NCBI GenBank assembly: GCA_046052125.1
Contig: JBJOMY010000003.1
Location: forward strand, 1 to 64,000
Direction of reading: 5' to 3'
Length of the DNA stretch: 64,000 nucleotides
Origin: Cyanobacteriota bacterium
GTDB lineage: Bacteria > Cyanobacteriota > Cyanobacteriia > PCC-6307 > Cyanobiaceae
In this document: piece by piece, positions 14,548-47,960 of the stretch
Layout: each line of letters begins with the position of its first letter
Position numbering within the stretch: the first letter of the stretch is position 1
Made by a program: the position numbers and the translations under genes
Notes under the pieces: model-generated
What the model saw: only the letters and a program-made list of their open reading frames with translations
Databases searched by the model: none
What the model was told of the DNA's origin: nothing

Positions 14548-14590
14548 ATCGGGGCGACAGGATTCGAACCTGCGACCTAGTGCTCCCAAA
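14548..14590 (-). other. att site: 3' half of tRNA-Pro(UGG), left boundary of element 1
   Basis: Reverse complement TTTGGGAGCACTAGGTCGCAGGTTCGAATCCTGTCGCCCCGAT (anticodon loop, T-arm, acceptor 3' strand); identical to 47918-47960. Confidence 0.93.
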
Positions 14591-14674
14591 GAGCTGACAG
14601 GGGGTTGGCCGTATTTGGCATTTCTAGTGATAGCAAGGGATCTCGGCGACGCTGTCCTGCCTTGTCAGGCCTGT

Positions 14675-14705
14675 TTGCGCACATTTTGCGCACATCTTGC
14701 GCACA
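14675..14705 (+). repeat. Three tandem TTGCGCACA repeats, putative integrase arm sites
   Basis: TTGCGCACAtt TTGCGCACAtc TTGCGCACA; same motif twice at 47834-47853. Confidence 0.75.
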
Positions 14706-14741
14706 TTTGGCCCATGCTGGTCTTGGCTGCTCCGGTGACCC

Positions 14742-15980
14742 ATGCCGTCTGTCCGTTTTGAGGAGCCCTGGGTGCCAGGGTTTCGCAGCGCGGTGCGCAC
14801 CTCGACGGCCGAGGGCTGGAGTGTGCGTGAGCACCGTGGTGGCATGCGACTCCAGGTGCGTCATGCCGCCGGCTCGATGCAGACCGTGTCGCTGCCATTT
14901 GATTGGGCGCGCCGCTCCACCGGCGATGCCTTGGTGCGGATACGAAACATCTATTCCCTTGTGGAGGAGGGGCATTCGATTCGCTCCGCGGCTGATCTGC
15001 TGGAGGGAAAGGCACCGGCCACGTTGAAGCCGTGGCGGGATGCTGCGGAGCGGTTTCGTGAGCAGAAGATCCTTCACGGCAATGCCATCAAGCCGAGCAC
15101 CTGGGAGAAGAACTACGAGCCGGTGATTGCCATGGCTGTTGAGCTGTTGAGCAGTCATCGGGCGCCTGGTCGGCCCGATGATCTTTTGGACCAGTGCATC
15201 CGCGAGTGGGAGCCTGGCAGTCGGGCGCGGCAGATCCGAGCCCAGAGCCTCAGTCAGTTCCTGCGCTACTGCGTTGAGCGCGAATCCTTTCCGGACCTGT
15301 GGAGTCCGCCGGCTGATCTGCGCTCCCACGTTGGGGTGAAACCTGCCAATGGATCGCCAAGCCGTAAAGGGGATCCACTCACCGATCAGCAGATCATCGA
15401 TTTGCTTGCTGCTTTGCCGGATGACGAAGCCGGCCGGCGTTGGAGTGATGCCATTCGCCTGTGCAGTGAGCTGGGCCTGCGGCCGATTGAGTTGCTGCAC
15501 CTCTCTGTGCGCCGCGATCCCAGTAGCCGGGAATTTCATTGGTGGTGTGGCTACAGCAAGCGCAGTGGCGGCGGGGCCACAGAGCCGCGTCGCTTGGAGT
15601 CCCTGCCGCTGATTGATCAAAACGGTGAGGTGCAGCAGTGGGATCTGCTCAATCGCTGGCTCACCGGCGGCATCACCCTCCCTCCTCTGGAGAGTGGAAA
15701 TGGTGCCGCTGAATGCCTCAAGACCTACCTGAACCGGCAGAAGGCCTGGGTGCAGTTGAAGGTTGTGATGGCGGCAGCCGGTGAACGACTGGTTCCTTAC
15801 AGCTTCCGCCACAGCTACAGCCTGCGCTGCCACCAGCGAGGGATTGACGGCGGCTCAGCGGCAGCGGCGATGGGACATTCCTATGAGGTGCATTGCCGCT
15901 CCTACCCATGGGCGTCTGAGGCCGGCGTCGTGGCTGCGTTCAAACGCGCCAGGGCTCAGGCCGCACCAATTCAGGGCTGA
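14742..15980 (+). CDS. Tyrosine recombinase/integrase
   Basis: GLRPIEL, YSFRHSY, MGHS, C-terminal Tyr; adjacent to att. Confidence 0.93.
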   Translation: MPSVRFEEPWVPGFRSAVRTSTAEGWSVREHRGGMRLQVRHAAGSMQTVSLPFDWARRSTGDALVRIRNIYSLVEEGHSIRSAADLLEGKAPATLKPWRDAAERFREQKILHGNAIKPSTWEKNYEPVIAMAVELLSSHRAPGRPDDLLDQCIREWEPGSRARQIRAQSLSQFLRYCVERESFPDLWSPPADLRSHVGVKPANGSPSRKGDPLTDQQIIDLLAALPDDEAGRRWSDAIRLCSELGLRPIELLHLSVRRDPSSREFHWWCGYSKRSGGGATEPRRLESLPLIDQNGEVQQWDLLNRWLTGGITLPPLESGNGAAECLKTYLNRQKAWVQLKVVMAAAGERLVPYSFRHSYSLRCHQRGIDGGSAAAAMGHSYEVHCRSYPWASEAGVVAAFKRARAQAAPIQG

Positions 15981-15983
15981 GCA

Positions 15984-16334
15984 TCAGGGCTGACCAGGAT
16001 CTTTGCCGCTGACTGAACTTCCCAAAGCGAGCCCAGCCAGGATGCTCAGTCCTTGCTTCACCGCGTCATCAATCCGCCCCTGGGGGCGTGTGCAGAACTG
16101 AGCCACAGAGTGCTCGGGCGTTGATCCGGTGGAGGGCTGCCCTGGTGCATCGGGATCCACAACGTCACCCCGTCCAGCGACCTCATCCACCCGCCGCTCC
16201 ACTGCCGGTAACCCATGCATCCGCACATACAACCAGCTCAAGGCCGTGCAGTTGAGCAGGTCAAAGGCGAGCGTGGCTCCCTGGAAGCCAAGGATCCCGG
16301 TGGAGATCCAGACCACCAGACGGCGGGAATCCAT
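15984..16334 (-). CDS. Hypothetical membrane protein
   Basis: Hydrophobic N- and C-terminal segments, ATG start. Confidence 0.65.
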   Translation of the reverse strand: MDSRRLVVWISTGILGFQGATLAFDLLNCTALSWLYVRMHGLPAVERRVDEVAGRGDVVDPDAPGQPSTGSTPEHSVAQFCTRPQGRIDDAVKQGLSILAGLALGSSVSGKDPGQP

Positions 16335-16391
16335 GGAGGGTGATGACGAACAGCTCCAAAGGGTTCCGAGGCTCGTCGGCGGGCTTCTTGT

Positions 16392-17426
16392 TCAGCCCCT
16401 GTAGCGGAAGGCAAACACCCCGCCCTCAAGCCTCACCCGGATGTCGCCATCGTCGTCTTCTGCCCATTGAGCTTCGTAGCGGCTGCCGTTGAGCAGTACC
16501 TCGGCGCTCTTGTCCTCCCAAAGGACAACAGTGCGGGTCAAACCACCGGGCTCAACCACATCAAACACGGTGTGGCCGTTGACGTTCTTGCGGGAAGTGA
16601 CGGCACAGCGGAAGCCCTCGAGGCGCTCGGCATCCCGCTCCATCTGGAACCAACAGGTGGCACCGCTCGCGATACCCGTGCCTGGGTTGCTGGGGTTGAA
16701 GGGGGTTTCAGGCGCTGGATTGGAGGGTGGGGCGTTCTGGGCCACCGGATTGGCGAGGAAACCTTGGATCACCGAGGAGGCCACCGCGAAGTTCAGGCCT
16801 TCGCTGTCGGTGAGCTTGAAGGTGGCCACCCCGACCACACAGCCGGTGCGGTCAAGCACCGGCCCGCCAGAGTTCCCCGGGTTAATCGGAGCATCGATCT
16901 GCAGGATCTCGCCGTCATCGCGCAGGCTGCTCACCACACCGCGGGTGAGGCTGAACTCCAGGCCCTTGGGAGCGCCGATCGCCACGATGTCGGCTCCCAC
17001 ATTGGGCTTGGCGCCCTTGAGCTCGAGAGGCTTGCCCCGCAGGCCCTTGACTTCGAGCAGGGCCAGGTCGGCCTGGGGTGATCGGCCGCCGGCGTCACTG
17101 AGCACAGCGGCAGCGTCCTGGCCGCCATCGGCCCACTTCACCGTGGCTGAGCTGCTGCCATCCACCACGTGGGAGTTGGTGAGCAGGAGCGTGTTGCCGT
17201 CCTGGTGACGCACCACGAAGGCACTGCCCTCTCCACCATCGGTCTTAACCACCGCAACACCCTGTTTTGCACCGCTGAACAGGGCTTCTGTTGAGAGGTT
17301 CTGATTGCTGCAGGGCGGCGCTTCTGGCACCGGGATGCGTGCCTGCTGTTGGGGTTGACAGCCTGCAGCGAGAACGGCTGCGGTCAGTGCCCATCGAAAC
17401 CCTGCTGTTGTGAGTCGCCGTGCCAT
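16392..17426 (-). CDS. Trypsin-like (S1C/HtrA-like) serine protease, probable lipoprotein
   Basis: LTNSHVV, DLALL, INPGNSGGP triad; lipobox-like LAAGC. Confidence 0.9.
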   Translation of the reverse strand: MARRLTTAGFRWALTAAVLAAGCQPQQQARIPVPEAPPCSNQNLSTEALFSGAKQGVAVVKTDGGEGSAFVVRHQDGNTLLLTNSHVVDGSSSATVKWADGGQDAAAVLSDAGGRSPQADLALLEVKGLRGKPLELKGAKPNVGADIVAIGAPKGLEFSLTRGVVSSLRDDGEILQIDAPINPGNSGGPVLDRTGCVVGVATFKLTDSEGLNFAVASSVIQGFLANPVAQNAPPSNPAPETPFNPSNPGTGIASGATCWFQMERDAERLEGFRCAVTSRKNVNGHTVFDVVEPGGLTRTVVLWEDKSAEVLLNGSRYEAQWAEDDDGDIRVRLEGGVFAFRYRG

Positions 17427-17542
17427 CGCAAGGCATCCGAGTCCTTCTATAGACATAGGCAGGAGCAAGCGGTGTTGCCATCACCCAGATCGGGGATGTG
17501 CAACGGCAGCCGGAACCCTCAGAAGTTCTCTGCTTCTGACGC

Positions 17543-18583
17543 ATGCCACTCACCCCTGAGGGCTGGACCCTGCTCAAAACCTGGGAGGGTTGCCGTTTGA
17601 GTGCCTATCCCGACCCCGCCAGTGGCGGTGCTCCCTGGACCATCGGCTATGGCCACACCGGGCCAGATGTTGTTCCTGGCCTGACGATCAAGCAGCAACA
17701 GGCCGATGCTTTTCTGCAAAAAGATGTGGCTGATGCCGCCAGCGCCATAGAGCGGCTCCTGCCGGGTGTTTCGCTGCTGCCACGCCAACGTGATGCGCTG
17801 ATCAGCTTCTGCTTCAACGTGGGAGTTGGTGCCCTGGAAGCGTCCACCCTGCGCAAACGATTGCTCGCGGGGGAATCAACTGCGCTCGTCCTCAAAGAAG
17901 AGCTGCCGCGGTGGTGCAAAGGCCCCCACGGCCCGGTGGAAGGCCTCAAGAAACGCCGCGCTGCAGAAATAGCCCACGCCACAGCCGCCGGGCAGGCAAA
18001 GGCAACACCCACATCGCAGCAGGGGTTGATCCAACTGGCGGTGCCCTATCTGAGCCAGAACGACAGCGTCACCGGCCAGGGCAGCCGGATGTGTTTCTCC
18101 TCCACCTGCGCCATGGCTGCCGCCTTCCTCAAGCCCGGCTGCCTCAAGGGATCCGGCCAGCTCGACGATCAGTACCTCGCGCTGGTGCAGCGCCATGGCG
18201 ACACCACCGACGCCGACGCCCAGGTGGCAGCACTCCGGAGCCTTGGATTGGAAGCCCGCTTCCGGATCGATGGCCGCATCGATTCCTTGATCGAGCAGCT
18301 CAAGCGGGACATTCCATGCCCAGTTGGTTGGCTGCATAAGGGTTCAGTGGCTTCTCCCACCGGCGGCGGCCATTGGAGCCTGGTGATCGGCTGGGATCCA
18401 GCCACCCGCCAGCTGCTGATGCATGACCCCAATGGGGAGGCAGATCTGGTGAATGGCGGGTACGTGAACCAGGCCATCAACGGCGGCCAAAACCTGCGTT
18501 ATTCCGAGCACAACTGGAGCCGGCGTTGGCAGGTGGAAGGACCTGGCAGCGGCTGGTGGATTCAGATCACCCCAATCGGTTGA
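17543..18583 (+). CDS. GH24 phage-type lysozyme fused to C39-like peptidase domain
   Basis: EGCRLSAYPD..WTIGYGHT, GLKKRRAAE; VPYLSQND..CFSSTCAM..GHWSLVIG..HDP. Confidence 0.9.
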   Translation: MPLTPEGWTLLKTWEGCRLSAYPDPASGGAPWTIGYGHTGPDVVPGLTIKQQQADAFLQKDVADAASAIERLLPGVSLLPRQRDALISFCFNVGVGALEASTLRKRLLAGESTALVLKEELPRWCKGPHGPVEGLKKRRAAEIAHATAAGQAKATPTSQQGLIQLAVPYLSQNDSVTGQGSRMCFSSTCAMAAAFLKPGCLKGSGQLDDQYLALVQRHGDTTDADAQVAALRSLGLEARFRIDGRIDSLIEQLKRDIPCPVGWLHKGSVASPTGGGHWSLVIGWDPATRQLLMHDPNGEADLVNGGYVNQAINGGQNLRYSEHNWSRRWQVEGPGSGWWIQITPIG

Positions 18584-18983: not shown

Positions 18984-19349
18984 ATGCTCACCGGTTCTGA
19001 TCTGCTCGCCAAAGTCAAAGAGTTGGGCGATGTCTCCAAATCCGATCTGGTGCGCAGCTGCGGCTACGTGAGCACCAAGAAGGATGGTGGCGAGCGTCTG
19101 AACTTCACCGCCTTCTATGAAGCCCTGCTCGAGGCCAAGGGTCTTAGCCTCGGTAACGATGGCGTGGGTCGCGGCAAAGGCGGTCGCAAGCTCAGCTACG
19201 TGGCAACAGTGCAGGGCAACGGCAACCTGTTGATCGGCAAGGCCTACACCGCCATGCTCGATCTCAAGCCCGGTGATGAGTTTGAAATCAAGCTCGGCCG
19301 GAAGCAAGTGCGCCTGATCCCCGCAGGTGGTGTGGATGAGGAGGAGTGA
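18984..19349 (+). CDS. Cyanobacterial AbrB-like transcriptional regulator
   Basis: LTGSDLLAKVKEL, CGYV, VQGNGNLLIGKAYT, PGDEFEIKLGRK. Confidence 0.9.
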   Translation: MLTGSDLLAKVKELGDVSKSDLVRSCGYVSTKKDGGERLNFTAFYEALLEAKGLSLGNDGVGRGKGGRKLSYVATVQGNGNLLIGKAYTAMLDLKPGDEFEIKLGRKQVRLIPAGGVDEEE

Positions 19350-19585
19350 TTTCAACGCGACTGCAAGAGCAGCTGCAATTCAGTGGCTCTTCTCGCAATA
19401 ACCACCAGAGCAGAACCAATTTAATTGGTTCGAAAGGGATGGAGACACGGAAGCTTCTGAGTGGCTCCATGGACAAAAGAGACCCAAGCCCCAGATCAAT
19501 AGCGAGCAGGAATAAGGAAGCAGAAAGATTTAACCCTCGGTACCAATCCATGCCCCGTGCGAGGGGAACAGCTAAGGATTGCGGG

Positions 19586-22282
19586 CTATAGGTAATTCTT
19601 ATAGAGCTGAAACAAATAGGTCATTCTGGCAGCCTCAGATTCAAACTTGAGACTGCCGTATGCCTTGTCTACCACTCGATCTAATGCCTGATGAGCTTTG
19701 CTGAGAATGGCCGGCATTGTAAGGGGATCGTAGAGCTGGGCAAGACTTGAACCCGGAAATGAAGCACGAGCATCCAGAAGCGCCTGAGCGGCTGTCTCTA
19801 CAGCTTGTTTCTGCTTCTCGCCAGGATTAAGCGGCCAGGGGAAGTTGTTGTAGACGATGCCCACGGAATAGCGATAGTCACTCTTGAGCCGGCCGCATAC
19901 AGTGCGCATCCAGGCATTGTGCATTAGCGAAGAGAGTATGCCAAAATGATATAGAGTTGCATTTGGAAGTACCTTGACCAGATTGCTGCACATCGTTGGC
20001 GGGTTCTCAAATCCGATGGGTAAATAGTATCGCCGTTCTGAGGAGGCTTCAGGAATGACCAGGAAAGAACTAGTAGGAAAGTTTTCTACATGAAAACGCG
20101 TTGGAGTGGATGCAAGCTTCTGAGTCGGTTTACTTTTGCTTGCTAGTCGAAATTGCTGCACAGCCTTAACTCTTTTTAGTGCTTCAGGCATGGCCTGCAG
20201 TTGAGCTGGCGAGCAGTCGCCGAGCCATAGGCACCATCGCTCATAGCCGTTGAGAAACTCATGGGCTCCGATCCAGCGATGAAAGCAAGGTGTGGCCAAG
20301 GGCTCCAGCTGAAGAAATAAATCACGTTCTTCGCGAGTGAAGAGATAATGACCTCCATCTATTGGTTTATTGCCAATCGCAATGTGCGGCACTGCGCAGA
20401 GGGGCTTGCTGCGGTTGAACAATGTGAGACTTGGCCCGTCCACAAGGTACGGATTAATTGTCTTAGCCTGGCTTCGCAATGGCTCGCCTTTAATGTCATC
20501 GTAGGAAAACAGCCATTTAGGTGTTATGTCTTCTGCTCCAAAACCCACGATTACACAATGAACGGCGGCCTTGCCTCGCGCTTCATTGCTCCAGCAGAAC
20601 GTTCGATGAGCAAAGAAGATATTCATACCCTGTTGCAGAATCCAGCTCCAGAGCACTCCAACCTGTTCGCCCTGGCAAATAGAGTTGGTAGAAACGAAAG
20701 CACAGCGGCTTTCACTACCAGCAATGAATCTTGCTGCCTTAACATACCAGGCCGCCACAAAATCAAGAAGCCCCGAATTCTTGATACCTCCGAACACAAT
20801 GGCTACATCGGCTTTCTGTTCGACACTTAAGAACTTGGCCCCCACAAAAGGGGGGTTGCCCATCACATAGCTGAATCGGCCAGAAGGAAGCAGAGTCGCC
20901 CAGTCGCATCTAAGTGCATTGCCATGCAGGATCGTGCTGCTGGCCTTAAGTGGGATACGGGCAAAATACATACCGAACTCTTCAGAGATCAACAGATTCA
21001 TCTGATGATCCATCAACCAGAGAGCCACCTGCGCGATTTGCGAGGGAAACTCCTCGATCTCAATGCCGTAGAACTGATCAACATTCAAGCAAATCAACTG
21101 ACTCACATCCAGCACTAACTGGTCCGAGCGGATCAAATGCTTTAGTACTTCTAGCTCCAGCAAGCGCAATTCTCTGTACGCAATGACCAGGAAATTTCCA
21201 CATCCACAGGCAGGATCTAGAAATTTCAGCTCTCTTAGTCGCTGATGGAACTCTGTGAGCCGTTTTGTCTGTCCCTTCACCTTCTCAAACTCTTCCCACA
21301 GTTGATCAAGGAACAGCGGCTTAATCAACTTGAGTATGTTGGCCTCGCTGGTGTAATGGGCACCTAAGTTCCGGCGGGCCGTGCGATCCATGATCGACTG
21401 GAACAATGAGCCAAAAATTGCCGGAGAGATCCGCCCCCAATCCAGCGCGGTGCTATCGAGCAATCCCTGGCGCATGCGTGCATCGAAACTAGCGTGAGGC
21501 AAAATCTCCGCAAATAGCAATCCATTCACATAGGGGAAAGCTGCGAGTTGCTCATCGAGATTCTTTAGGCGCTGATCAGGTGCTGTGTTCAAGACCTGAA
21601 ACAATCCACTGAGCTGCGCGGCCAGATCACTGCCATCTTCCTCAGTGCGCTGTTCAATAAACTCCTGAAACTGCTGCCTCTCGAAGATCCCTGTATCTTC
21701 AGCAAATAAGCAGAAGAGAAGTCGTACCAGATAAAGCTCCAGCTGATGTCCTTCGTAGCCCACCTCCTTCATTTGATCATGAAGGCAGCCCATAGCTTCG
21801 GCTGCCTGGATGTTGACCGGATCCTGCTCGCGAATTCGATGCCGCTGATAGCCAGCGATGAAGCCAAAAAGCTTCACGTTTTTATAAAAGTCTCTAAGAG
21901 CAAACTCATGCTGCTCATTTTCCTCCAAGTCGTAAAGACGAAATCTGCCAAAGTCTGAAACGAGGATGTATCTTGGCAGATCACGTTCGGCAATCCCTGG
22001 AAAATAATCGAGGGCTTGAGTGTATGCGCGATCGAGATCCTTGCCCCGAGACTTGTGCTCAACTAGTAGTGTTCCCTTCCAGAAAAGGTCGATAAACCCT
22101 CGTCGATCCCCCAGCTTTTTTACGGGCTCTTCAAACGAAGCTACCCGCTTGCGGCTGATACCAAAAACATAGAAGAAGCCATCCCAGAATGATTTCGCCT
22201 CAGCTTCCTCTGAGGTCTCATCTGCCCATTCTTTTGAGAAAGACAGTGCCCTGCTCTTGATCTCATTCCAACTAATGGGCAT
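19586..22282 (-). CDS. MmeI-like Type IIL/IIG restriction-methyltransferase
   Basis: IDLFWKGTLLVEHKS nuclease motif, GAHYT, FLDPACGCGNF, NPPF, C-terminal TRD (KSDYRYS, LYDPLTMP); low GC. Confidence 0.92.
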   Translation of the reverse strand: MPISWNEIKSRALSFSKEWADETSEEAEAKSFWDGFFYVFGISRKRVASFEEPVKKLGDRRGFIDLFWKGTLLVEHKSRGKDLDRAYTQALDYFPGIAERDLPRYILVSDFGRFRLYDLEENEQHEFALRDFYKNVKLFGFIAGYQRHRIREQDPVNIQAAEAMGCLHDQMKEVGYEGHQLELYLVRLLFCLFAEDTGIFERQQFQEFIEQRTEEDGSDLAAQLSGLFQVLNTAPDQRLKNLDEQLAAFPYVNGLLFAEILPHASFDARMRQGLLDSTALDWGRISPAIFGSLFQSIMDRTARRNLGAHYTSEANILKLIKPLFLDQLWEEFEKVKGQTKRLTEFHQRLRELKFLDPACGCGNFLVIAYRELRLLELEVLKHLIRSDQLVLDVSQLICLNVDQFYGIEIEEFPSQIAQVALWLMDHQMNLLISEEFGMYFARIPLKASSTILHGNALRCDWATLLPSGRFSYVMGNPPFVGAKFLSVEQKADVAIVFGGIKNSGLLDFVAAWYVKAARFIAGSESRCAFVSTNSICQGEQVGVLWSWILQQGMNIFFAHRTFCWSNEARGKAAVHCVIVGFGAEDITPKWLFSYDDIKGEPLRSQAKTINPYLVDGPSLTLFNRSKPLCAVPHIAIGNKPIDGGHYLFTREERDLFLQLEPLATPCFHRWIGAHEFLNGYERWCLWLGDCSPAQLQAMPEALKRVKAVQQFRLASKSKPTQKLASTPTRFHVENFPTSSFLVIPEASSERRYYLPIGFENPPTMCSNLVKVLPNATLYHFGILSSLMHNAWMRTVCGRLKSDYRYSVGIVYNNFPWPLNPGEKQKQAVETAAQALLDARASFPGSSLAQLYDPLTMPAILSKAHQALDRVVDKAYGSLKFESEAARMTYLFQLYKNYL

Positions 22283-22428
22283 AGGGCTCACTCTGAATTT
22301 GACTAGAAAGCATTTGTTGTATTCTAATCGCGGTGCCGAATAGCCGCCATGCAGCAACCCTTGTTTGGGGTCACTAATGCATTGTTAGCTTTGAGGTGCT
22401 AACGCTGGAGATGAGCGGCGAGTAGGCG

Positions 22429-22851: not shown

Positions 22852-22874
22852 GAGTATCGACGTGTCTTTGGGGG

Positions 22875-24417: not shown

Positions 24418-24423
24418 GCTGGC

Positions 24424-35167: not shown

Positions 35168-35226
35168 TCACAGGCCACCGCCATAACCCAGTTCGATCCG
35201 GCGGCGCAACCGTGGAAACCCGGGGA

Positions 35227-40005: not shown

Positions 40006-40049
40006 GGCGCCTGGCGCCCTCGTCACTCCATACCCAGTCATTCACGCCT

Positions 40050-40529
40050 ATGACCGCAACCCTCGCCACCACCACCAATCCCGCCGCCCTTGGCGAACCC
40101 ACCCCCGGATCCCCGGAAGCTCTTTTGCTCCTGGCCAACGCTGGAGTGCTCCCCGCCAGTGCCGGCACAGAAGACCCACGCTTTTCCGCTGACGCCATCA
40201 CCAGCTGCGTCTCCCGCCTGCTCGAGGTGAAGCAACAACAGGAGCTCCTCGCCAATGAGCAGAAAGAACTGAACGAACAGCTGCGCCTGGCTCATCTGCG
40301 CGGTGATCTACTCACCCTCCTGCCCGCCGGTAAAGACGGCAACGGTTACCAGATCACCCCAGATCTCGTGCTCAACCGCCGCCCTGGCCGCAAGCAGTGG
40401 AGCTACTCGATTGATTGCAAAGCGATCGAATGCCAGCTGAAGGCGCGGCAGAGCTACGAACAGCAGAGCGGCCTGGCCAGCTACAGCGTGGGGGCGGCGT
40501 TCTGGGAGGTGCGGGCTGGGAAGGGCTGA
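40050..40529 (+). CDS. Hypothetical coiled-coil protein, homolog of 60896-61270
   Basis: Shared K.QQ.EL, PGR..(W/Y), IE.QLKA, FW.(V/I)RA pattern. Confidence 0.7.
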   Translation: MTATLATTTNPAALGEPTPGSPEALLLLANAGVLPASAGTEDPRFSADAITSCVSRLLEVKQQQELLANEQKELNEQLRLAHLRGDLLTLLPAGKDGNGYQITPDLVLNRRPGRKQWSYSIDCKAIECQLKARQSYEQQSGLASYSVGAAFWEVRAGKG

Positions 40530-40556
40530 GAGGCGCTCAGCCATCCCGACACCACA

Positions 40557-40586
40557 AGAGCCCTGGGTCACGGCCCGGGGCTTTTT
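40557..40586 (+). terminator. Intrinsic terminator
   Basis: AGAGCCCTGGGTC-AC-GGCCCGGGGCTTTTT. Confidence 0.7.
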
Positions 40587-40658
40587 GCTGCAACCCAACA
40601 GCGCCGGGACAGAGGTCAACTTGCCTATGGCTAGGACACAGGCAAGTACTCCAAAGCC

Positions 40659-40820
40659 ATGGGCCTGCTCTACGAACTCATCGTCGACACCGAGGACGGC
40701 ACCACCACCGTTCAAGTGGAAGCCAACAGCAAGGAAGAAGCTCTCGAGAGTGCTCAGGAGCTTTACCCCGGTTGCCGACTGGCGCTTGTGAAGCCTGCAG
40801 CAGGGGAGCAAAAGGTCTGA
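40659..40820 (+). CDS. 53-aa small protein (not in ORF track)
   Basis: MGLLYELIVDTEDGTTTVQVEANSKEEALESAQELYPGCRLALVKPAAGEQKV. Confidence 0.6.
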   Translation: MGLLYELIVDTEDGTTTVQVEANSKEEALESAQELYPGCRLALVKPAAGEQKV

Positions 40821-41004
40821 GTCATGAAGGCCCGATCAATCACCGCAAAGCAGTACCCGAGGGTCATTGGTGAATCCGGTTGGAATCGAACTGGCGTGAC
40901 AGTGGTCGATTTCAAGGATGGGAGCTGTCAGCAGTTCTCCGCACTTCAAACGAAAAACAGCCACGCCATGATCAGCAGTAAGAGCAAACCCTGCTGTTGT
41001 GTTG

Positions 41005-41793
41005 ATGAGCCCCAACCCACCTGTGCTGTTTGTGGGACATGGTTCACCGATGTTTGCCCTCGAACCTGGTGCAGCTGGTGAAGCCCTCGTCGCGCTTGGC
41101 AAGGAACTGCCTATTCAACGGGCGGTGCTTGTGATCAGCCCGCACTGGGAGACGAGCATTCCCACCGTCAGCACAGCTTCGCGGCTGGAGACGATTCACG
41201 ATTTCGGCGGATTTGATTCCCGTCTGTACGAGATGAACTACGCCGCGAGCGGAAGCCCTCACGCGGCGCAGGAGGTGATCACAGCACTGCAGGCCGCTGG
41301 TTTGTCGGCTCTCGCTGATGACAGCAGGGGCTTAGATCACGGGGCATGGGTGCCTTTGCGCTACCTCTTCCCCACCCCCGAGGTGCCGATCGTGCCGTTA
41401 TCGATCCAACATCAGGCCGGCGCCCTGCATGCCTATCGGGTTGGGCAAGCACTGGCGTCCTTGAGGGACCAGGGTTGGTTGATCGTGGCCTCAGGAAACA
41501 TCACCCACAACCTCAGTGACTGGCGAGAGGCCTATCGGGGTGCAGCCCTGAACACCGACTACGCGCAGCGCTTTTCCGATTGGGTCCACCAGCAACTAAT
41601 CAACAAGCAGGTGGATGCTTTGCTCGCGTATCGCGAGAACCAGCCCGATGGCGAGCGTGCCCATCCCCGCGACGAACATCTGCTGCCCTTCTTCACAGCT
41701 CTGGGAGCTGCAGATTCTGACAGCCAAGTCACAGTGGTTCACCGCGGGATCAGAGACCACGTGATTGCAATGGACAGCTATATGTTTCATTGA
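41005..41793 (+). CDS. DODA/YgiD-type extradiol ring-cleavage dioxygenase (LigB family)
   Basis: LFVGHGSP, ISPHW, GLDHGAWVPL, SGNITHNL, AHPRDEHLLP. Confidence 0.92.
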   Translation: MSPNPPVLFVGHGSPMFALEPGAAGEALVALGKELPIQRAVLVISPHWETSIPTVSTASRLETIHDFGGFDSRLYEMNYAASGSPHAAQEVITALQAAGLSALADDSRGLDHGAWVPLRYLFPTPEVPIVPLSIQHQAGALHAYRVGQALASLRDQGWLIVASGNITHNLSDWREAYRGAALNTDYAQRFSDWVHQQLINKQVDALLAYRENQPDGERAHPRDEHLLPFFTALGAADSDSQVTVVHRGIRDHVIAMDSYMFH

Positions 41794-41819
41794 CTTCTTG
41801 CAGCCAACCTTGATGGCGA

Positions 41820-42527
41820 CTAAAGCAACTCAAAGAGCAATAGATCGGCACCCTCAGTCCCAGCCCTGAAAAGCTCAAGGGTGCCTGCACCGAAACCCAA
41901 ACCATCCCCTGGCCGCAGAGGATGGCCGTCGGCCTCACCACTGCCACCAATCATCTGGATCCAGCCTCGGCTGCCGCTAGCCAACGCCAGGCTGAGTGAT
42001 TGAGCGGCCGGAGGCTGAGCCCTCCAGAGCCGAGCCTGACTCTGAATGGCCATCGCACCATCTGCCTGATCCGGATCCAGCAAGAGCGTCCAACTGGCTC
42101 CAATGGAAAAGCGTTTCTGCTCATAGACCGGCTTGGAGCCCTTGCAGCTGGGTTCAATCCAGATCTGCAGGAGCCGACAAGGCTGATCGCTTTCATTGAT
42201 CTCGCTGTGCACCACACCGGTGCCTGCACTCACGCGTTGCACCTCACCAGCGGATAGCACCTCGGAGTGCCCCATCGAATCACGGTGCATGAGTTGGCCC
42301 TCGACCATCACCGTGACAATTTCCATGTCCTGATGAGGATGCATCCCGAAACCAGAGCCCGCTGCGATGGTGTCGTCATTGATCACCCGCAATGCCCCGA
42401 AGCCCATCCAGGCCGGATCGACATGGCCAGCGAAGGAAAAGCTGTGCCAGCTGTTGAGCCAGTCGAGCCTGCTGTGAAAGCGCTCGGCGGATGGACGGAA
42501 TACCAGGTCAGTGGCTGTGGCAGTCAT
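41820..42527 (-). CDS. Pirin family protein
   Basis: HSFSF, GFGMHPHQDMEI, AGTGVVHSE, LLQIWI. Confidence 0.93.
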   Translation of the reverse strand: MTATATDLVFRPSAERFHSRLDWLNSWHSFSFAGHVDPAWMGFGALRVINDDTIAAGSGFGMHPHQDMEIVTVMVEGQLMHRDSMGHSEVLSAGEVQRVSAGTGVVHSEINESDQPCRLLQIWIEPSCKGSKPVYEQKRFSIGASWTLLLDPDQADGAMAIQSQARLWRAQPPAAQSLSLALASGSRGWIQMIGGSGEADGHPLRPGDGLGFGAGTLELFRAGTEGADLLLFELL

Positions 42528-42585
42528 GGTTGAAGACCTTGAATGCAACGTGGCAGGTGATCAGTGCAGAGGGTTTGTTCAAGGA

Positions 42586-42855
42586 TCAAGCCCAAAATTT
42601 CCACCAGGAGCGCTTGGGAGTTGGAGCGGCATCGATCATGGTGTGGCTGCCATCGCAGAAAGGACCGTTGCCCGACGCACCGCAATTGCACAGATAGACG
42701 GTCTTAGCGGCCTCCAGCTTGAGGATGTGCGGTGTGGCGTCCGTTCCCTGGTGACTGCCGTCGCAGTAGGGACCGTTCTTGCTCAGGCCGCAGGTGCAGA
42801 GGGCATGGTTGCCAGCGGGCAGATTGTGGACGGCAGGATGGGATGGTGTGCTCAT
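42586..42855 (-). CDS. CDGSH iron-sulfur domain protein (two motifs)
   Basis: CTCGLSKNGPYCDGSH and CNCGASGNGPFCDGSH. Confidence 0.93.
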   Translation of the reverse strand: MSTPSHPAVHNLPAGNHALCTCGLSKNGPYCDGSHQGTDATPHILKLEAAKTVYLCNCGASGNGPFCDGSHTMIDAAPTPKRSWWKFWA

Positions 42856-42963
42856 CGGTACGCAGGCTTGGTGGACGCGATTGGCGCCCTGCAATCGTGC
42901 GCTGGGGGCCTGCAGCTCCACAAGAGCGCACTTCAAAGTGGGTTGGTGACTAGGAGGTAACCC

Positions 42964-43317
42964 ATGAACCAGGGCAACGGTTTCCAGGACACGCTTGAGC
43001 ACGGCAACTGCAAGGCGGAACTGGCTCTGCGGGTGATCCAGGGGCGCTGGAAACTCCTGATCCTGCGGGAGCTCATCGAAGGAGTGCGGCGCTTCTCCGA
43101 TCTGCAGCGTGCCCTGGCAGACGTTCAGCAGGGTGTCAGTCAGAAGGTGCTCACCGCTCAGCTGCGGGAGCTGGAGGCTGATGGTGTGGTGGTACGCACG
43201 GTGTATCCCGAAGTGCCCCTACGGGTGGAGTACAGCCTCAGCGAGCTAGGACGTGAACTGGTGCCTGTTCTGGAGAGCCTCCACGCCTGGGGAGACAAGA
43301 TCCAGCCTGCGAGTTAG
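42964..43317 (+). CDS. HxlR-family winged-helix regulator
   Basis: GRWKLLIL, RFSDL, LRELEADG, RVEYSL. Confidence 0.93.
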   Translation: MNQGNGFQDTLEHGNCKAELALRVIQGRWKLLILRELIEGVRRFSDLQRALADVQQGVSQKVLTAQLRELEADGVVVRTVYPEVPLRVEYSLSELGRELVPVLESLHAWGDKIQPAS

Positions 43318-44227
43318 ACCAAGCTGTTGAAACTTCAGAAAGACGCAATTGGCTGCCATCAACCTTCAGTGTCACAGAAAATCTGATTTTGCATAGGTTC
43401 CAGAGAATGATCTTGGTTGGAACACATCCAATGCGGTCACCATGACTCCTCCTTAGCACATGTAATCAAAGGCACCATCGTGCGTATTCAAACGCTCAGC
43501 AGAAAGAGGGGATTGCAACCGCACATGGTCGCATTGCATCAAGCGCCGATCGCGCGATTAGCCCAGACTGACTGCGGTTCATTGCCACCGAATTCATGAT
43601 CCGCCTCCATGGTGATCGCAACAGCTTGATTGCCGCACTTTTACTTCATTGGAGTGAGCATCAGATTGGCCTACCGCTGTCGCGAGAGGATGTGATGCCA
43701 AAACGAAAAGACCATCGGCTCAGTACCAGTCAGCGCCATTGACCGGGCTGCTCAAGTACATCTCTACAAAGACAGGTATCAGCCATTGGCGCCCAACCAA
43801 AAACCCCCGAGCAGCGCCCGAGGGTCATCGATCAATCACGAACATTCCAATGGCTTGTGGTCGTTGAAGCTGCTGGCGGTGGCACCTGGGGCCGAACGTT
43901 CCAGGTGTGGGGTGGTTGGTTCTCCTGGGGCACCTGAGGTGGTGCAAACGGAGTGTCGATCAGTCAGGCGCACGAGGTGAGAACCAGCCCAAAGGCTGTT
44001 CTCCTGCCCGGCTGAACGACCCGCCCACGGTTGGGTGAAGACTGTTGGAGCAGGGGCCTGCAGTCAGCGTTGCTTCTGTTGCTGCTGGGGTGGGGTATCG
44101 GCCATCGGTGGCTCCTCCCCGGGTTGATGGGTACAGCATCGCCACTCCCCAAGGGTCAGGGCAATCGGGATTTACACGCATTGCCTTGCCCGATGAACAG
44201 GAGCAACGTGGTTGATTTGGCCCTTTT

Positions 44228-44533
44228 TCAGCGCCAAAGCACCATCTGCGGCGGCTGCGGTGGTCGCCATTGCGGGGAGCAGGGTGTCCAGCCCTCAGTG
44301 CGGCGTTGGCGCCACAGCTCAACGGCCTTCTCACGGCTCAGCTGTTGGCGCCGTTTGAGCAACGGCGCGGCTTGATCCCTCAGCCACTCACCGCTGGTCA
44401 CCTCCAGCTCCTGCTGCCAGCGATGCCAGATCACCGGCTTGAAATGCAGCACCCGGCGGCCATCAGTGAGCCAGGCCTCAGCTGGGCAGGACGGGATGCG
44501 CTGCCCTTGTCCCTGCCCGTTGGGCACCCACAT
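44228..44533 (-). CDS. DUF1651-like protein
   Basis: WL.DG..VLHFKP, PLLKRR..L....A..LW.....GW....PQW. Confidence 0.7.
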   Translation of the reverse strand: MWVPNGQGQGQRIPSCPAEAWLTDGRRVLHFKPVIWHRWQQELEVTSGEWLRDQAAPLLKRRQQLSREKAVELWRQRRTEGWTPCSPQWRPPQPPQMVLWR

Positions 44534-44546
44534 GCTTCTGCCCGCC

Positions 44547-44840
44547 TCAGCCCACCTCCGGCGCCCAGCCCCGCTGACGAGCCATGTCATCAGTCCAGCC
44601 CTGGCAGCGGCGGATCAGATGCTCACCCTGGGCGATCAGGCCCTGGTGCAGCTGACAGGTGAGCAGAGGAATGCAATGCGGCCCGGCGTGATGGCGAAAC
44701 CAGTGGCAGGTCATGCAGACCTTGCGGCTGCGGCTGGGGCGCAGCACGTCCTGCTCGAGATAAGGCCAGGCCTCGCAGTCACCTGCAGCCTCAACCGCGG
44801 CAGCCACAGAGCGATCCGAGCTTGAACGGGAGAGCACCAT
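44547..44840 (-). CDS. Small Cys/His-rich protein
   Basis: CMTCHWF...TCQLHQGLIAQGEHL..RC; LexA box upstream. Confidence 0.75.
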   Translation of the reverse strand: MVLSRSSSDRSVAAAVEAAGDCEAWPYLEQDVLRPSRSRKVCMTCHWFRHHAGPHCIPLLTCQLHQGLIAQGEHLIRRCQGWTDDMARQRGWAPEVG

Positions 44841-44859
44841 CACCAAAACCCCATGCATG

Positions 44860-44873
44860 CGTACACCTGTACT
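44860..44873. promoter_or_regulatory. Cyanobacterial LexA (SOS) box
   Basis: AGTACAGGTGTACG on minus strand fits RGTAC-NNND-GTWCB. Confidence 0.7.
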
Positions 44874-44920
44874 AGCAGGGATTGGGTTGGTTGGCGCGGG
44901 TATGCGGGGCCGTGATTTCC

Positions 44921-44958
44921 AAAAAGAGCCCCGGGCCATGGGCGCCCGGGGCTCTTTG
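44921..44958. terminator. Strong hairpin, possible bidirectional terminator
   Basis: AAAGAGCCCCGGGC-loop-GCCCGGGGCTCTTT. Confidence 0.55.
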
Positions 44959-44995
44959 CATCAGCGGGACCTTGGCTGCCCGCTTCTCCACGTTC

Positions 44996-45387
44996 ATGGC
45001 TCACACCCGCTGCCTTGTGCAAGAGCTGTTGGAACCCTTTGGGGCCTCACGCCAACTCCTTTGCTTCTCTTCTTTCAACGCATCACCACCTTCATCCGTT
45101 CACTGTTCAAGCGAGAGACCAATTGCTCCTCTGCACTGCGCGGCCTGCCTGACCAACAGGACCACGCCCTGGCTGCCTTTGAGCAGGGTGACTGGCTCGC
45201 TGAGCTGGAGCTCCTGCAGCTCGCCAACGCCCTGCAGCGCAGTGCCATCACCCGTGGCGGCTACGACGGCCGCGCGTTTGATCTGATGGTCGCCATCGCC
45301 GATGTGCTCGAGGCCGATCACGGCTGGAGTTTTGAGCAAGCCGATGGCTGGCTCGAGCGAATGGGGCTCTACGAACAGGAATTCTAA
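44996..45387 (+). CDS. Hypothetical protein, 5' end uncertain (possible frameshift)
   Basis: C-terminus AIADVLEADHGWSFEQADGWLERMGLYEQEF is conserved in the copy at 47263-47360. Confidence 0.55.
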
Positions 45388-46082
45388 AAAAGCAATGCAG
45401 AATGCTCCTTCCAGCTTCAAATCAACTGCGATTCAGTGTCAGTGGCATCAATGTGCACTCGAGAAGTGGGAGTAACGAGGCGATATGGGCTTATTCTGCT
45501 GCATGCCTGCATTCCTAACTGGCGATAACGTCGAACTAGTGAGAATGGGAGGAGAAAGCAACAGCATGATCACGCTGATCCAGAGAGCATTCCATGTGTT
45601 GCCATCGACTATGCTAATTCCCTATGTGATGTATGAGCATACGAGGAACATGTCTGCGCCTCATTTACCGTTAGGCCCAAGCGGAGAAAGGGGCGGCATC
45701 GCTCTCGAACGCACCACAGAAGACACGCGGATGAAGATCGCAATCAGGTTGCATGAATAGTCGACACACTGAAGTTCGGGCCCCGCAAGCCAGTCGGTGA
45801 CCTTGGGCTGCCAATCATGCATGTATGACTCGCCGCCTGTAGGACCTCAGGGGCTCTGAACGGTTTGGCAGCCCTGTAGACAGCGGCGAAAGCCGCTATC
45901 CGCACCTGCCGCATGTGTGAGCAAAGAGGACGGCCAGAACTGAATCTAGAATCAAAAGATACGATAAACCTAGTCAAGAATCGGGCTGGACCGCGCCAAT
46001 TGCTTGGGACGATCTAGCCCGATTTTATTCGAGTCAGCCTGTACAGGTAGAACTCATAACTACACTTAGGCGTCTGACTGCC

Positions 46083-46295
46083 TTACGCATTCTCGGCACG
46101 ACCTCCAGGCAAAGAGTCTTTGAGTGCATTCTCAATGAGGTATGCCGCGAGGTTGCTTAGAGAACGTCCTTCTCCGGTGCTTCGCTTCTCCAGCGAGCTA
46201 AAGACAGTAAATGGGATCGTGATCGTCAGACGCTTTGGTGCGCGCCTCTGGAAGTGGTGAGCTTGTCGAATGCTGTTGCTGTCGCCGTAGACCAC
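46083..46295 (-). CDS. Ribbon-helix-helix protein
   Basis: RLTITIP...EGRSLSNLAAYLIE. Confidence 0.7.
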   Translation of the reverse strand: MVYGDSNSIRQAHHFQRRAPKRLTITIPFTVFSSLEKRSTGEGRSLSNLAAYLIENALKDSLPGGRAENA

Positions 46296-46526
46296 GGGTG
46301 ACTCCTGTGGCGGACCTCTTCATTATCTCTTCCACTGCGACCGTAAGACAAGAAATGCGACCAGAAGGCGAAGGAGTCACGCGAATAATGTTGTTTTATT
46401 TTCGCTTCGAAAAATCAAATTCACCGCGCATCAAGATGGGACTTTGTGCGCAATAATCTGCTAGTAAGCGACTGATGAACCACTCAGTTCTGCAGGTCAG
46501 ATAGCATCGCGAATGGCTTGACAGTG

Positions 46527-46763
46527 TTACCGATCAGCCTGAAGTTCTCGGTCGAGCATTTCAAGGATAATTTCGTCTATCGACCGACCAGTTAGCGCAG
46601 CTTTTTGTTGAAGAACAGCAAGCAGTTCTCCAGGGAGGTTGATCTGAAGCTTTTGCGGCATCCGCTCGGGATCCAAGCGCCAATCGCTATCAGGCTGCTC
46701 CATTGTGATCCTTTTCGGATGTGGATGTTTCTGTGGCATCACAAATGACCAATCCGTAGGCAC
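46527..46763 (-). CDS. Ribbon-helix-helix protein
   Basis: KLQINLP...AALTGRSIDEIILEML; start probably near 46703. Confidence 0.6.
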   Translation of the reverse strand: MPTDWSFVMPQKHPHPKRITMEQPDSDWRLDPERMPQKLQINLPGELLAVLQQKAALTGRSIDEIILEMLDRELQADR

Positions 46764-46890
46764 CGATTGAATTTAGGTAATCCTTGATTGCGTCATCAAT
46801 GACTTCATTCAGGCGCTTGTGATCGCGTATCGAGACCAGGCGCAGGGCCATGTGATCCTTCTCGTCCAGTGCAATGGTCAGGCGTGGCAT
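46690..46890 (-). CDS. Ribbon-helix-helix protein
   Basis: MPRLTIALD...LNEVIDDAIKDYL. Confidence 0.65.
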   Translation of the reverse strand: MPRLTIALDEKDHMALRLVSIRDHKRLNEVIDDAIKDYLNSIGAYGLVICDATETSTSEKDHNGAA

Positions 46891-47380
46891 CGCACCGAGA
46901 TCTCAGACGGCAAGAGTTAATAAATGCTAGCCAGATCTTTGTGCATAGTTTCACTAATGCGGATCTGCACTCCAGTGCAGAGGCACTGCGCCGTCGTGGT
47001 GTTTGTTTTCTGGGACGAGGTGCCGCAGTGGCCCCCAAGAACACTCTGGTGAACGGAGGCCCCGGTCACGTGTGGTGAATCGACAGCAGATCTGTGGGGG
47101 CTATGAAGTCCATAGCGCACTCTCTGGCGGTTGCAGTTTTCACCCCCGTGTTGAGGTCTTCAGCCTCGATCGTGCTTCGGCCCTCCAGATGCCCACCGTT
47201 GTCGATGGTCAGCGGTCCGACGAGCCAAGGTGGTTAATCAGATTCCACCAATTGGCCGCTGTTCGCCATCGCCTACGTGCTCGAGGCTGATCACGGCTGG
47301 AGCGTTGAGCAATCCGATGCCTGGCTCGAGCGCATGGGGCTCTGGGAGGAGGAGTTCTGAGCAAGCGTTCTCCGCTGGGT

Positions 47381-47677
47381 TCAGCGAAGGCTTCTGCGCA
47401 CCGGCTGGCTCCGGTGCGTTTTTTGTGGCGTTTGTGCGCTCATATGGCTGGGCTCCAGTAGGTGCGCGGAGCGTGCCGTGGCCTCGCTCATCACCGCCTG
47501 GCACTGCTCCAGGTGGTACTGGACGGGTGAGTTGGGACTGGGGAACTTGCGGCGCCAGTGCTGACCAGGTTGAAACAGGCCGGACGCGCGCCAGCGGGCC
47601 AAGGTGCGCTCGCTGACCCCCAGCTGGTCGCGGGCCTCTCTGGCGGTGGCCCAGGCGCAATGACGGGTCGATTCCAT
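47381..47677 (-). CDS. Excisionase-like HTH protein
   Basis: TAREARDQLGVSERTLARWR.SG..PGQHW; beside right att. Confidence 0.75.
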   Translation of the reverse strand: MESTRHCAWATAREARDQLGVSERTLARWRASGLFQPGQHWRRKFPSPNSPVQYHLEQCQAVMSEATARSAHLLEPSHMSAQTPQKTHRSQPVRRSLR

Positions 47678-47833
47678 AGGCGGGATGCAGGTGTGCCCCC
47701 GAGGGGCTGGTCATGCATCCGATCGCGTGGATCCGATGCGTTGGAGGCTACCCGCGCTGCCCTGTCCAACCCTGTCCAGCCCCTTCCCGGCAGGTCCTGA
47801 TTTGGGGTCTATCGGGCCCCTTCGGGCGAGTTT

Positions 47834-47853
47834 TTGCGCACATCTTGCGCACA
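47834..47853 (+). repeat. Two TTGCGCACA repeats, putative arm sites
   Basis: Same motif as 14675-14705. Confidence 0.75.
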
Positions 47854-47917
47854 ATTGCCCAAAACAGGGCATGAAAAAGGGCTCTCAGAATCCCTGAGAA
47901 CCCTTGCGCTGGAATGG

Positions 47918-47960
47918 ATCGGGGCGACAGGATTCGAACCTGCGACCTAGTGCTCCCAAA
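47918..47960 (-). other. att site: 3' half of tRNA-Pro(UGG), boundary of elements 1 and 2
   Basis: Exact 43-bp copy of 14548-14590. Confidence 0.93.

Follow-up and report, generated by a model that had tools for sequence, protein, structure and literature searches.

We describe a 33,413-bp integrated element, element 1 (14548-47960), in the first 64 kb of contig C3 (64,000 nt, hereafter the window) from the genome of a cyanobacterium of the family Cyanobiaceae (G000; 2.64 Mb, 64.7% GC, 10 contigs). Element 1 is probably an intact member of a conserved family of phage-derived, integrating, self-replicating islands that carry no capsid genes, and it is best read as a large, apparently SOS-wired, tycheposon-like or satellite-like island with exchangeable cargo cassettes. 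A first-pass annotation of this DNA had proposed a bounded, apparently intact element that has a replicon but in which no virion, packaging or conjugation gene can be recognised, and searches against Pfam and PHROGs bear this out. Element 1 is not a singular object: it is one of a family and sits in an array of at least two elements.

Boundaries and replicon of element 1

Element 1 lies between exact 43-nt direct repeats, attL at 14548-14590 and attR at 47918-47960, which are identical at 43/43 positions as first claimed; 100 shuffles produced no chance match to a 25-nt core of this repeat. Read in reverse complement, the repeat corresponds to a tRNA 3' end (T-arm and acceptor end), and ARAGORN and Rfam detected no whole tRNA or RNA family in the window. 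A third exact copy occurs outside the window, 65 kb downstream at C3:113227-113269, where it overlaps tRNA-Pro(tgg) at c[113228,113301]. Because this copy lies inside the tRNA gene, the locus is a tandem array of element 1, a second element (element 2; 47961-113269, 65,309 bp) and the tRNA, and attR of element 1 doubles as attL of element 2.

The integrase and excisionase genes stand at opposite ends, as proposed. The tyrosine integrase (412 aa, 14742-15980, + strand) matches PHROG_1 (E 5.7e-13) and, below the cut-off, Pfam Phage_integrase (3.9e-4), and its residues R247, R356, H379 and Y388 are conserved with two other integrases. The Xis-like helix-turn-helix (HTH) protein (47381-47677, -) is a weak match to HTH_17 (Pfam E 2.5e-4) and to PHROG excisionase families (~1e-4). 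The two ends also carry the matching arm repeats that had been reported: the left repeats, 3.2 copies of TTTGCGCACAT at 14674-14708, have their partner copy at 47832-47873, within right arm repeats (47760-47873) that comprise 2.3 copies of CCCTGTCCAA at 47760-47782 and TTGCGCACATCTTGCGCACA at 47832-47855. Element 2 has arm repeats of its own, of the CATCTCACATGC type, at 48092-48114 and about C3:113177-113201, and the integrases of the two elements are just 32-34% identical. Judged from their sequences, elements 1 and 2 are separate elements sharing one att site. A composite element split at about 30.3 kb, raised since a Rad52-Gp157-SLOG block of element 2 abuts the tRNA, was ruled out by the matched arm repeats that each element has at both ends.

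Between these ends lies a replicon. The module of initiator, DnaB and DnaG beside iterons that the first-pass annotation had described stands as far as the helicase, the primase and five iterons are concerned, whereas its initiator matches no family in Pfam, PHROGs or NCBIfam. The DnaG-type primase (30328-32001, -) has Pfam zinc-ribbon and Toprim domains and matches PHROG_6444 (E 6.4e-101). The DnaB-family helicase (31992-33923, -; Pfam DnaB_C E 1.3e-16; PHROG_19) probably starts later than annotated, its relatives being ~566 aa long. Upstream of dnaB-dnaG and beside the iterons, a gene at 33770-34825 (-) encodes a putative replication initiator of 351 aa, with a winged-helix N-terminus, a disordered linker and a conserved C-terminal domain; we infer this role from its position, from iterons that vary with it among relatives and from its DNA-binding fold. 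None of its 232 homologues is named. An AlphaFold model built from a 41-sequence alignment predicted the N-terminal helix/wing domain confidently (pLDDT 62-88), the linker as disordered and the C-terminus poorly, and Foldseek returned only weak matches to winged-helix regulators (E at least 0.03). The origin-like region (34945-35171), placed between the divergent initiator-dnaB-dnaG and sigma-factor operons, consists of an AT-rich tract followed by five ~20-nt iterons, TGATGCACGGGGTGCAGCA (35038-35171). A promoter scan of 29700-38500 gave 0 sigma-70-like sites, and terminator-like sites there were not above chance.

The Rad52-like and Gp157-like genes, the two sigma factors and the lysozyme-peptidase named in the earlier annotation were all found with Pfam and PHROGs. 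The recombination operon (27617-29832, -) encodes a SLOG/YAcAr protein (29338-29832, Pfam E 1.5e-8), a Gp157/Gam-like protein (28609-29328, 1.3e-13) and a Rad52-type annealase (27617-28576, 7.3e-40), all with PHROGs matches. The endolysin (17543-18583, +) joins a lysozyme (Pfam Phage_lysozyme E 6.5e-36) to a C39-like peptidase (Peptidase_C39_2), matches PHROG endolysins and, as one of the backbone genes, has homologues in a related element of genome G299 and in an own-genome copy, C1a.

Pfam revealed no head, packaging, tail or relaxase family, and no type IV secretion system (T4SS) or coupling protein (T4CP) family, among the 183 open reading frames (ORFs) of at least 70 aa that overlap 13000-50600. 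Similarly, PHROGs gave no head-and-packaging or tail family among 142 of the 230 element 1 ORFs of at least 55 aa, the 88 omitted being mostly covered by Pfam-confirmed genes. The lone Pfam tail-tip match spans 12 residues at E 0.0025, below the cut-off. Since the two largest unexplained ORFs, those of the putative initiator and of an HTH regulator, encode just 351 and 280 aa, there is no room for a hidden terminase or portal. PADLOC and NCBIfam scans gave extra detail on element 1 proteins, and a codon-position substitution test against relatives was used to tell true genes from shadow ORFs.

A family of collinear islands

Among 301 sampled genomes of the family, G000 included, the helicase of element 1 occurs in 17 (again counting G000). 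Within the genus, 10/17 other genomes contain it and G000 has three copies; several other genera of the family gave no match. For two element 1 proteins, the named homologues are from Synechococcus sp. strains. We compared 44 element 1 proteins by tblastn with seven related regions, located in genomes G168, G069, G236, G299 and G218 and, twice, on G000 contig C1. They share one collinear backbone of about 20 genes. The backbone runs in the order small gene, rad52, gp157, SLOG; dnaG, dnaB, initiator; sigma factor, HTH regulator, 151-aa protein, small sigma factor, phosphoesterase, two unknown proteins; and DUF1651, 176-aa protein, with variable gaps between the blocks.

The relatives occupy different sites. 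The G299 element spans 37.4 kb between 47-nt repeats at tRNA-Pro, and its integrase is 58% identical to that of element 1. A G000 sibling spans 46.5 kb between 37-nt repeats at tRNA-Lys; it shares with element 1 the backbone order, 49-95% protein identity and the lack of a capsid, but differs in its target tRNA, its initiator type, its cargo and its integrase, which adjoins the tRNA and is unrelated (33% over 133 aa). The third own-genome copy lies near tRNA-Met. No structural module, the presence of which in close relatives the first-pass annotation had named as the mark of a deleted prophage, stands between the backbone genes in the six copies scanned: no head, packaging or tail PHROG was detected in 137 coding-like ORFs of at least 150 aa (41 from G299, 43 from G168, 27 from G069 and 26 from G236), nor in 50/74 such ORFs of the two own paralogues, where the 24 omitted ORFs were known backbone genes or shadows; 7 border-spanning ORFs were dropped, and the scan did not extend to the 24 ORFs of G218. 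Read at the level of sequence, element 1 is a member of a family and not a one-off deleted prophage. Our literature search, which most subscription journals were beyond, found no prior description of this backbone; Synechococcus islands of a related kind are mentioned there in general terms only.

Several backbone genes are strongly conserved. The first, a small gene of ~91 aa at 25107-25379 (+), retains 76-93% nucleotide identity in 7/7 copies, and its substitutions peak at the third position of the + frame; the minus-strand ORF 25014-25367 was rejected by the codon-position test as its shadow. The SLOG-Gp157-Rad52 operon keeps its gene order throughout the 7 related regions, as well as in element 2. 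Across the origin, the sigma operon begins with an RpoD-family sigma factor (35212-36186, +; Pfam Sigma70_r2; PHROG_351 E 8.4e-30; NCBIfam cyanobacterial RpoD). It is followed by the 280-aa regulator (36247-37089, +), which is not a full sigma factor; it carries a C-terminal LuxR/PedR-like HTH (PHROG_3282 E 7.8e-6; NCBIfam LIC13292/PedR over residues 183-247), and its coding status was confirmed by the codon-position test. The 151-aa protein encoded at 36986-37441 (-) keeps 65-95% identity in 7 copies with a third-position substitution excess; the same test discarded its plus-strand partner ORF as a gene. It has no family in PDB, Pfam or the ESM Atlas, which gave unnamed cyanobacterial clusters only.

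The short SigF-like sigma factor (37926-38366, +; Pfam Sigma70_r2; PHROG_36098 E 1.5e-33) is 34% identical to a sigma factor of element 2. Upstream of it, 37510-37950 is conserved among copies and shows no coding periodicity in either long ORF, and this segment may be non-coding or regulatory. A phage-type calcineurin-like phosphoesterase (38309-39640, +; the 'exonuclease' family PHROG_284, E 3.1e-53) precedes two conserved proteins, 39568-40005 and 40050-40529 (both +), that are coding by the codon-position test. The product of the latter (159 aa) shows 89-94% identity across 7 copies, and none of its 270 homologues is named; its substitutions, 73/34/360 across the three codon positions, indicate purifying selection, and its AlphaFold model (pLDDT 59.7) was unusable. 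The last block pairs a DUF1651 protein (44228-44590; Pfam E 4.5e-9) and a 130-aa protein (44547-44939), both on the minus strand (44228-44939), supported by the codon-position test and with homologues in other copies and in element 2, with a 176-aa gene (44857-45387, +) that is coding by the same test. The 176-aa protein had no usable ESM Atlas match, and in profile searches with three unknown backbone proteins no PDB sequence matched below E 0.1.

The origin is conserved in layout and variable in its repeats. Six related copies have the same arrangement with a near-identical AT-rich box, and the iterons vary with initiator type. The iteron of element 1 is common to G168 and G069, whose initiators are 62-74% identical to its own; G299 and the own-genome copy C1b, with initiators 54% identical, share another iteron; and G218 and G236 each have their own. 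Initiator types may define compatibility groups.

The first-pass annotation had also reported two LexA boxes, and both are present and conserved across copies. The motif used, AGTACNNNNGTACT, is what we take to be the cyanobacterial LexA box. Box 1, AGTACGGGCGTACT (29917-29930), lies upstream of the recombination operon, and box 2, CGTACACCTGTACT (44860-44873), overlaps the start of the 176-aa gene; the window holds 2 such boxes against 0.19 expected by chance. Genome-wide (2.64 Mb), AGTACNNNNGTACT has 4 perfect sites, and 17 at one mismatch or better. Three of the four perfect sites precede the SLOG gene by ~170 nt, one in each own-genome element copy; the fourth, at G000 C4:331960, is outside any element copy. 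Box 1 is perfect in 4/5 relatives (G168, G069, G299 and G218) and departs from the motif at one position in G236 and in the element 2 operon, while box 2 recurs beside the 176-aa gene in C1b, G168 and G299. The genome encodes lexA with a related GTAC-N4-GTAT site upstream of it, and the site upstream of recA, CGTACGCCTGTACT, is a one-mismatch form. This pattern supports, without proving, predicted control of element 1 by LexA through both boxes.

Cargo cassettes and neighbouring sequences

The gaps between backbone blocks hold cargo. An MmeI-type IIG restriction-modification enzyme (19586-22357, -; five MmeI Pfam domains; PADLOC REase_MTase_IIG E 0) is followed by a candidate two-gene defence system, PDC-M50 (22429-23315, -), made up of an A protein (PADLOC PDC-M50A E 5.9e-49) and a TIR/ThsB-like B protein (ThsB1 1.4e-56, PDC-M50B 8.7e-46; Pfam ThsB_TIR). 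The GC content over 19000-24000 is 0.518, and that of this restriction-modification/PDC-M50 segment and of a ribbon-helix-helix (RHH) segment is ~51-52% against 64% for the backbone. Corresponding gaps in the relatives hold two-component systems, cation efflux proteins, transposases, nucleases, helicases and methyltransferases.

Three further cargo blocks sit between imperfect direct repeats of backbone sequence, and relatives are without them. A Na+/H+ exchanger with a TrkA-C domain (25495-27198, -; Pfam E 1.4e-55) lies between imperfect direct repeats of 97 nt (25324-25420 and 27512-27608); its protein is unmatched in the 7 related regions, in which rad52 directly adjoins the small gene. A second block, 40813-43837, bounded by 64-nt imperfect direct repeats, comprises by Pfam a LigB-type dioxygenase (40999-41793, +), a pirin (41820-42548, -), a CDGSH protein (42586-43002, -) and an HxlR regulator (42964-43317, +). 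The RHH cassette (45393-47260) has three genes, 46083-46295, 46527-46763 and 46690-46890 (all -; Pfam RHH_5, RHH_1; PHROG Arc-like), flanked by 107-nt repeats at 45287-45393 and 47260-47366.

Metagenomic Logan contigs from four studies (X3, X4, X5 and X9) were placed on 40000-56000, with no weight given to uncovered parts. Contig joints cross the LigB set in 3/4 runs, from 40791 to 43790 (X3, X4) and from 40529 to 43794 (X4, X9), and a joint from 45327 to 47330 crosses the RHH set (X9). Across these runs, cargo specific to element 1 has much lower depth than element 2, in X5 2-6 against 77-190, and relatives of element 2 therefore occur without element 1. A 'go-back' joint from 48115 to 47919 in X4 is explained by the element 2 arm repeat present at both ends of that element.

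Near attL, element 1 encodes a small conserved protein with a hydrophobic N-terminal stretch (15984-16334, -), which shows a third-codon-position substitution excess and matches no family in PHROGs or Pfam; its homologues adjoin the endolysin in G299 and C1a. Next to it lies an accessory trypsin-like (HtrA-like) serine protease (16392-17468, -; Pfam Trypsin_2 E 1.6e-26), unmatched at the same position in G299. An AbrB-like transcriptional regulator (18984-19349, +; Pfam PF14250 E 3.6e-29) has nine copies in the genome.

Sequences left of attL include an RHH_5 gene (13525-13716, -), two copies of TCTGTCCAACC at 14497-14518 that resemble the right-end repeats of element 1 at 47760-47782, and a tail, ccctgagaagtca, that also precedes the att copy at the tRNA. 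One more element, now decayed, may have its right end in 13525-14547, in which case the contig begins inside the array. A CCCTGA(G/A)AA motif occurs just inside the tRNA-proximal end of every element inspected at Pro, Lys and Met sites (14535-14547, 47893-47901, C3:113214-113226, and C1 at about 738190 and 182205); it may be a shared site for a recombination protein or host factor.

Farther left, the contig starts with a 159-nt direct repeat (1-159 and 322-480, 94% identical). Two ABC transporter genes and an HlyD-family gene (a type I secretion set) are followed by IS3-type transposase genes (1441-6560 and 7249-9264), and the insertion sequence (IS) copy at 9001-9714 is 98.6% identical to one on contig C1. 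A segment of GC 0.52 at 10409-13240 encodes a protein of 943 aa in which Pfam recognises an autotransporter beta-domain (E 1.5e-31), an unusual cargo for picocyanobacteria. Compared with the rest of the genome, the left flank 9001-14547 gave IS copies and short matches only. The transfer-messenger RNA of this genome is of the permuted form.

Ancestry, a possible helper and rival explanations

The closest phage homologues of six element 1 proteins belong to the cyanosiphoviruses S-CBS2, S-CRES1-3 and P-SS2. The primase is 38% identical to that of P-SS2 and 33% to that of S-CBS2, the phosphoesterase 47-51% to S-CBS2 and S-CRES1-3 proteins and the endolysin 40% to that of S-CBS2; the RpoD-like sigma factor is 34% identical to S-CBS2 rpoD, the small sigma factor 36% to S-CBS2 gp077, and DnaB 25% to a cyanosiphovirus helicase. 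A divergent helicase operon opposite a sigma-factor operon is likewise common to S-CBS2 and element 1. The small sigma factor of S-CBS2 comes after terS-terL and before primase and phosphoesterase, whereas element 1 keeps the sigma-phosphoesterase pair without a terminase, 37510-37950 being the terS-terL position. The genomes of these phages are 71-108 kb long with terS/terL, portal, head and tail genes; element 1 has none of these and carries an integrase, att sites and cargo instead.

Element 2 does encode virion proteins. Its genes include an integrase, an HTH protein, a KilA-N protein, its own helicase and primase, TerL (61796-63418), portal, scaffold, major head protein and a collagen-like fibre, as well as two sigma factors, defence-like genes and a second Rad52-Gp157-SLOG operon adjoining tRNA-Pro; TerL, portal and head protein are S-CBS2-like. 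No tail gene was recognised, and the 60 ORFs in 64-82 kb gave no tape measure, tube, sheath or baseplate. Without a recognisable tail, element 2 would be a head donor at most. The two element families share sigma-factor, SLOG-Gp157-Rad52, DUF1651 and endolysin modules. Elsewhere in element 2 (C3:82795-85926 and L002:1926-5907), a 1043-aa ORF is accompanied by three large genes that match PHROGs 12629, 2668 and 34860 (methyltransferase-like), and farther on lie an OLD/ABC-type ATPase and an Abi-like gene pair; this methyltransferase/ATPase/Abi region is likely a defence island.

A second tandem array is found at tRNA-Lys (C1:619356-738292; att copies at 619356 with 1 mismatch, 691736 and 738256). 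It consists of a 72.4-kb head-encoding element, in which head genes were confirmed, followed by the 46.5-kb capsid-less sibling, so that each of the two head-encoding elements of G000, one at tRNA-Pro and one at tRNA-Lys, shares its att site with a capsid-less element in tandem. Homologues of the element 2 terminase occur in 65/301 genomes of the family, up to 4 per genome. Prophages are reputedly rare in picocyanobacteria, and this spread is therefore surprising. For the earlier proposal of element 2 as packaging helper, TerL, portal, scaffold and major head protein are in place but a recognisable tail is not, and most genomes that carry the backbone have no homologue of the terminase. We consider quite unlikely a layered piracy in which element 1-type replicons would be packaged in heads of tail-less element 2-type elements, with tails from a cyanosiphovirus, and the sigma factors of the replicon would switch on the late genes of the head donor.

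Prochlorococcus tycheposons resemble element 1 in several features, according to their description (Hackl et al., bioRxiv 10.1101/2020.12.28.424599): integration at tRNA 3' ends that leaves partial tRNA copies, tandem arrays, a tyrosine recombinase with excisionase, their own primase and DnaB-type helicase, cargo, a link to DNA damage (predicted for element 1), and a cargo type free of capsid or conjugation genes. The same preprint puts tycheposons and phage-inducible chromosomal islands (PICIs) at 10-20 kb, with tycheposon modules of ~1 kb for integration and 2-4 kb for replication. At 33-46 kb, element 1 and its relatives are two to three times larger and depart from that small size, with a conserved backbone of ~20 genes; sigma factors, the Rad52-Gp157-SLOG operon, endolysin, iteron origin and LexA-type boxes also set element 1 apart, as does the host genus. 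The helicase is unmatched in several other genera of the family and close kinship to Prochlorococcus tycheposons is therefore not favoured; the likeness is judged by features and not by hallmark profiles. Known phage satellites measure 8-18 kb and marine VEIMEs <5-16.8 kb (PMC9618062). Like such satellites (PICI, cf-PICI, P4-like, PLE, PICMI and marine VEIMEs), element 1 is phage-derived, has its own integrase and replicon and is without a full set of virion genes, and here a head-encoding element stands in tandem; relative to those described in these sources, it has no recognised packaging or interference module and is two to four times larger. An integrative and conjugative or mobilizable element (ICE/IME) would have a relaxase, and Pfam found none among the 183 ORFs. 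Defective prophages show structural remnants or pseudogenes and idiosyncratic deletion; PHROGs gave no such remnants in element 1, and the capsid-less layout recurs in the six relatives or paralogues scanned.

How might such an island work? DNA damage would relieve LexA repression at the two conserved boxes, Int and Xis would excise the island, and the winged-helix protein would open the iteron origin for DnaB and DnaG. The sigma factors of element 1 would drive its own genes and possibly those of a helper. Copies would exit after lysis, most likely in heads supplied by another element or by an S-CBS2-like cyanosiphovirus, and less likely in vesicles. Excision, amplification and cell-to-cell transfer of element 1 are what we infer from its gene content and family.

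Several points weigh against an intact, mobile island. The LexA box consensus is an assumed motif and LexA binding a prediction; integrase and Xis match curated models weakly; and the putative initiator is assigned by position and a weak, modelled winged-helix fold. Metagenome unitigs break at the 43-nt repeat, and these assembled contigs could reveal no circle junction, empty site, excision or copy-number rise. No terS, capsid-redirecting or interference gene and no pac or cos site was recognised, the 28 unexplained ORFs having been searched at Pfam E <= 1 and against PHROGs, and these two databases cannot exclude an unrecognisable structural protein among the small ORFs. Homologues of the element 2 terminase are lacking in 10/17 backbone genomes (7/17 have one), and in the four other genomes that have both, backbone and terminase are on different contigs. 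Finally, IMG/VR viral contigs contain no relatives of either the 159-aa protein or the helicase, which leaves no sign of element 1 in virus fractions.

Three other explanations account for part of these data. Element 1 could be a capsid-independent, cargo-type tycheposon-like island that excises and replicates under stress and spreads by membrane vesicles or as free DNA after lysis. Its tRNA integration in tandem arrays, its combination of integrase, primase, helicase and cargo without a packaging gene, and the missing match in IMG/VR agree with this, and the tycheposon preprint describes these elements in vesicle and viral fractions and induction of their hallmark genes by mitomycin C (bioRxiv 10.1101/2020.12.28.424599). 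We nevertheless regard it as unlikely: replicons of 33-46 kb that combine two sigma factors with an endolysin and a phage recombination operon are much closer to phages than are the tycheposon modules described there, and no result here bears on vesicles.

Element 1 could instead be the immobile remnant of an S-CBS2/P-SS2-like cyanosiphovirus that integrated at tRNA-Pro and lost its structural module. The six phage-like proteins point in that direction, as does the small sigma factor, which follows terS-terL in S-CBS2 and which nothing recognisable precedes in element 1, where 37510-37950 lacks coding periodicity. Decay is very unlikely, however, as the capsid-less layout is shared by relatives at three different tRNAs with integrases only 32-58% identical, the backbone is under purifying selection, the att copies are identical at 43/43 positions, and the PHROG searches turned up neither a structural pseudogene nor a head or tail fragment. 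Least probable of all, in our judgement, is a domesticated defence or adaptation island whose replicon and sigma factors amplify and express defence genes within the host under phage attack or DNA damage, with no horizontal transfer. The type IIG restriction-modification and PDC-M50/TIR cargo, the other nuclease, helicase and methyltransferase cargo of relatives and the LexA-type boxes would suit such a role, but exact att repeats and intact Int/Xis genes are retained, and copies at different tRNAs with different integrases, three of them in one genome, indicate repeated movement. An intact member of a family of self-replicating, capsid-less islands thus remains our preferred reading of element 1.

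Picocyanobacteria are reputed to be without plasmids, conjugation and, mostly, prophages, so the movement of their genomic islands calls for an explanation. The family described here offers a concrete candidate vehicle for such movement, of 33-46 kb, multi-copy and self-replicating, with an identifiable origin; its swappable cargo slots carry defence, ion-transport and redox genes, and its SOS-type operators are conserved. Their position in tandem with head-only elements points to one possible way into particles. Altogether, element 1, with its defined origin, cargo slots and SOS-type operators, represents a large form of tycheposon or satellite, and through it the tycheposon concept reaches elements of far greater size and phage character in estuarine/freshwater Synechococcus/Cyanobium lineages.

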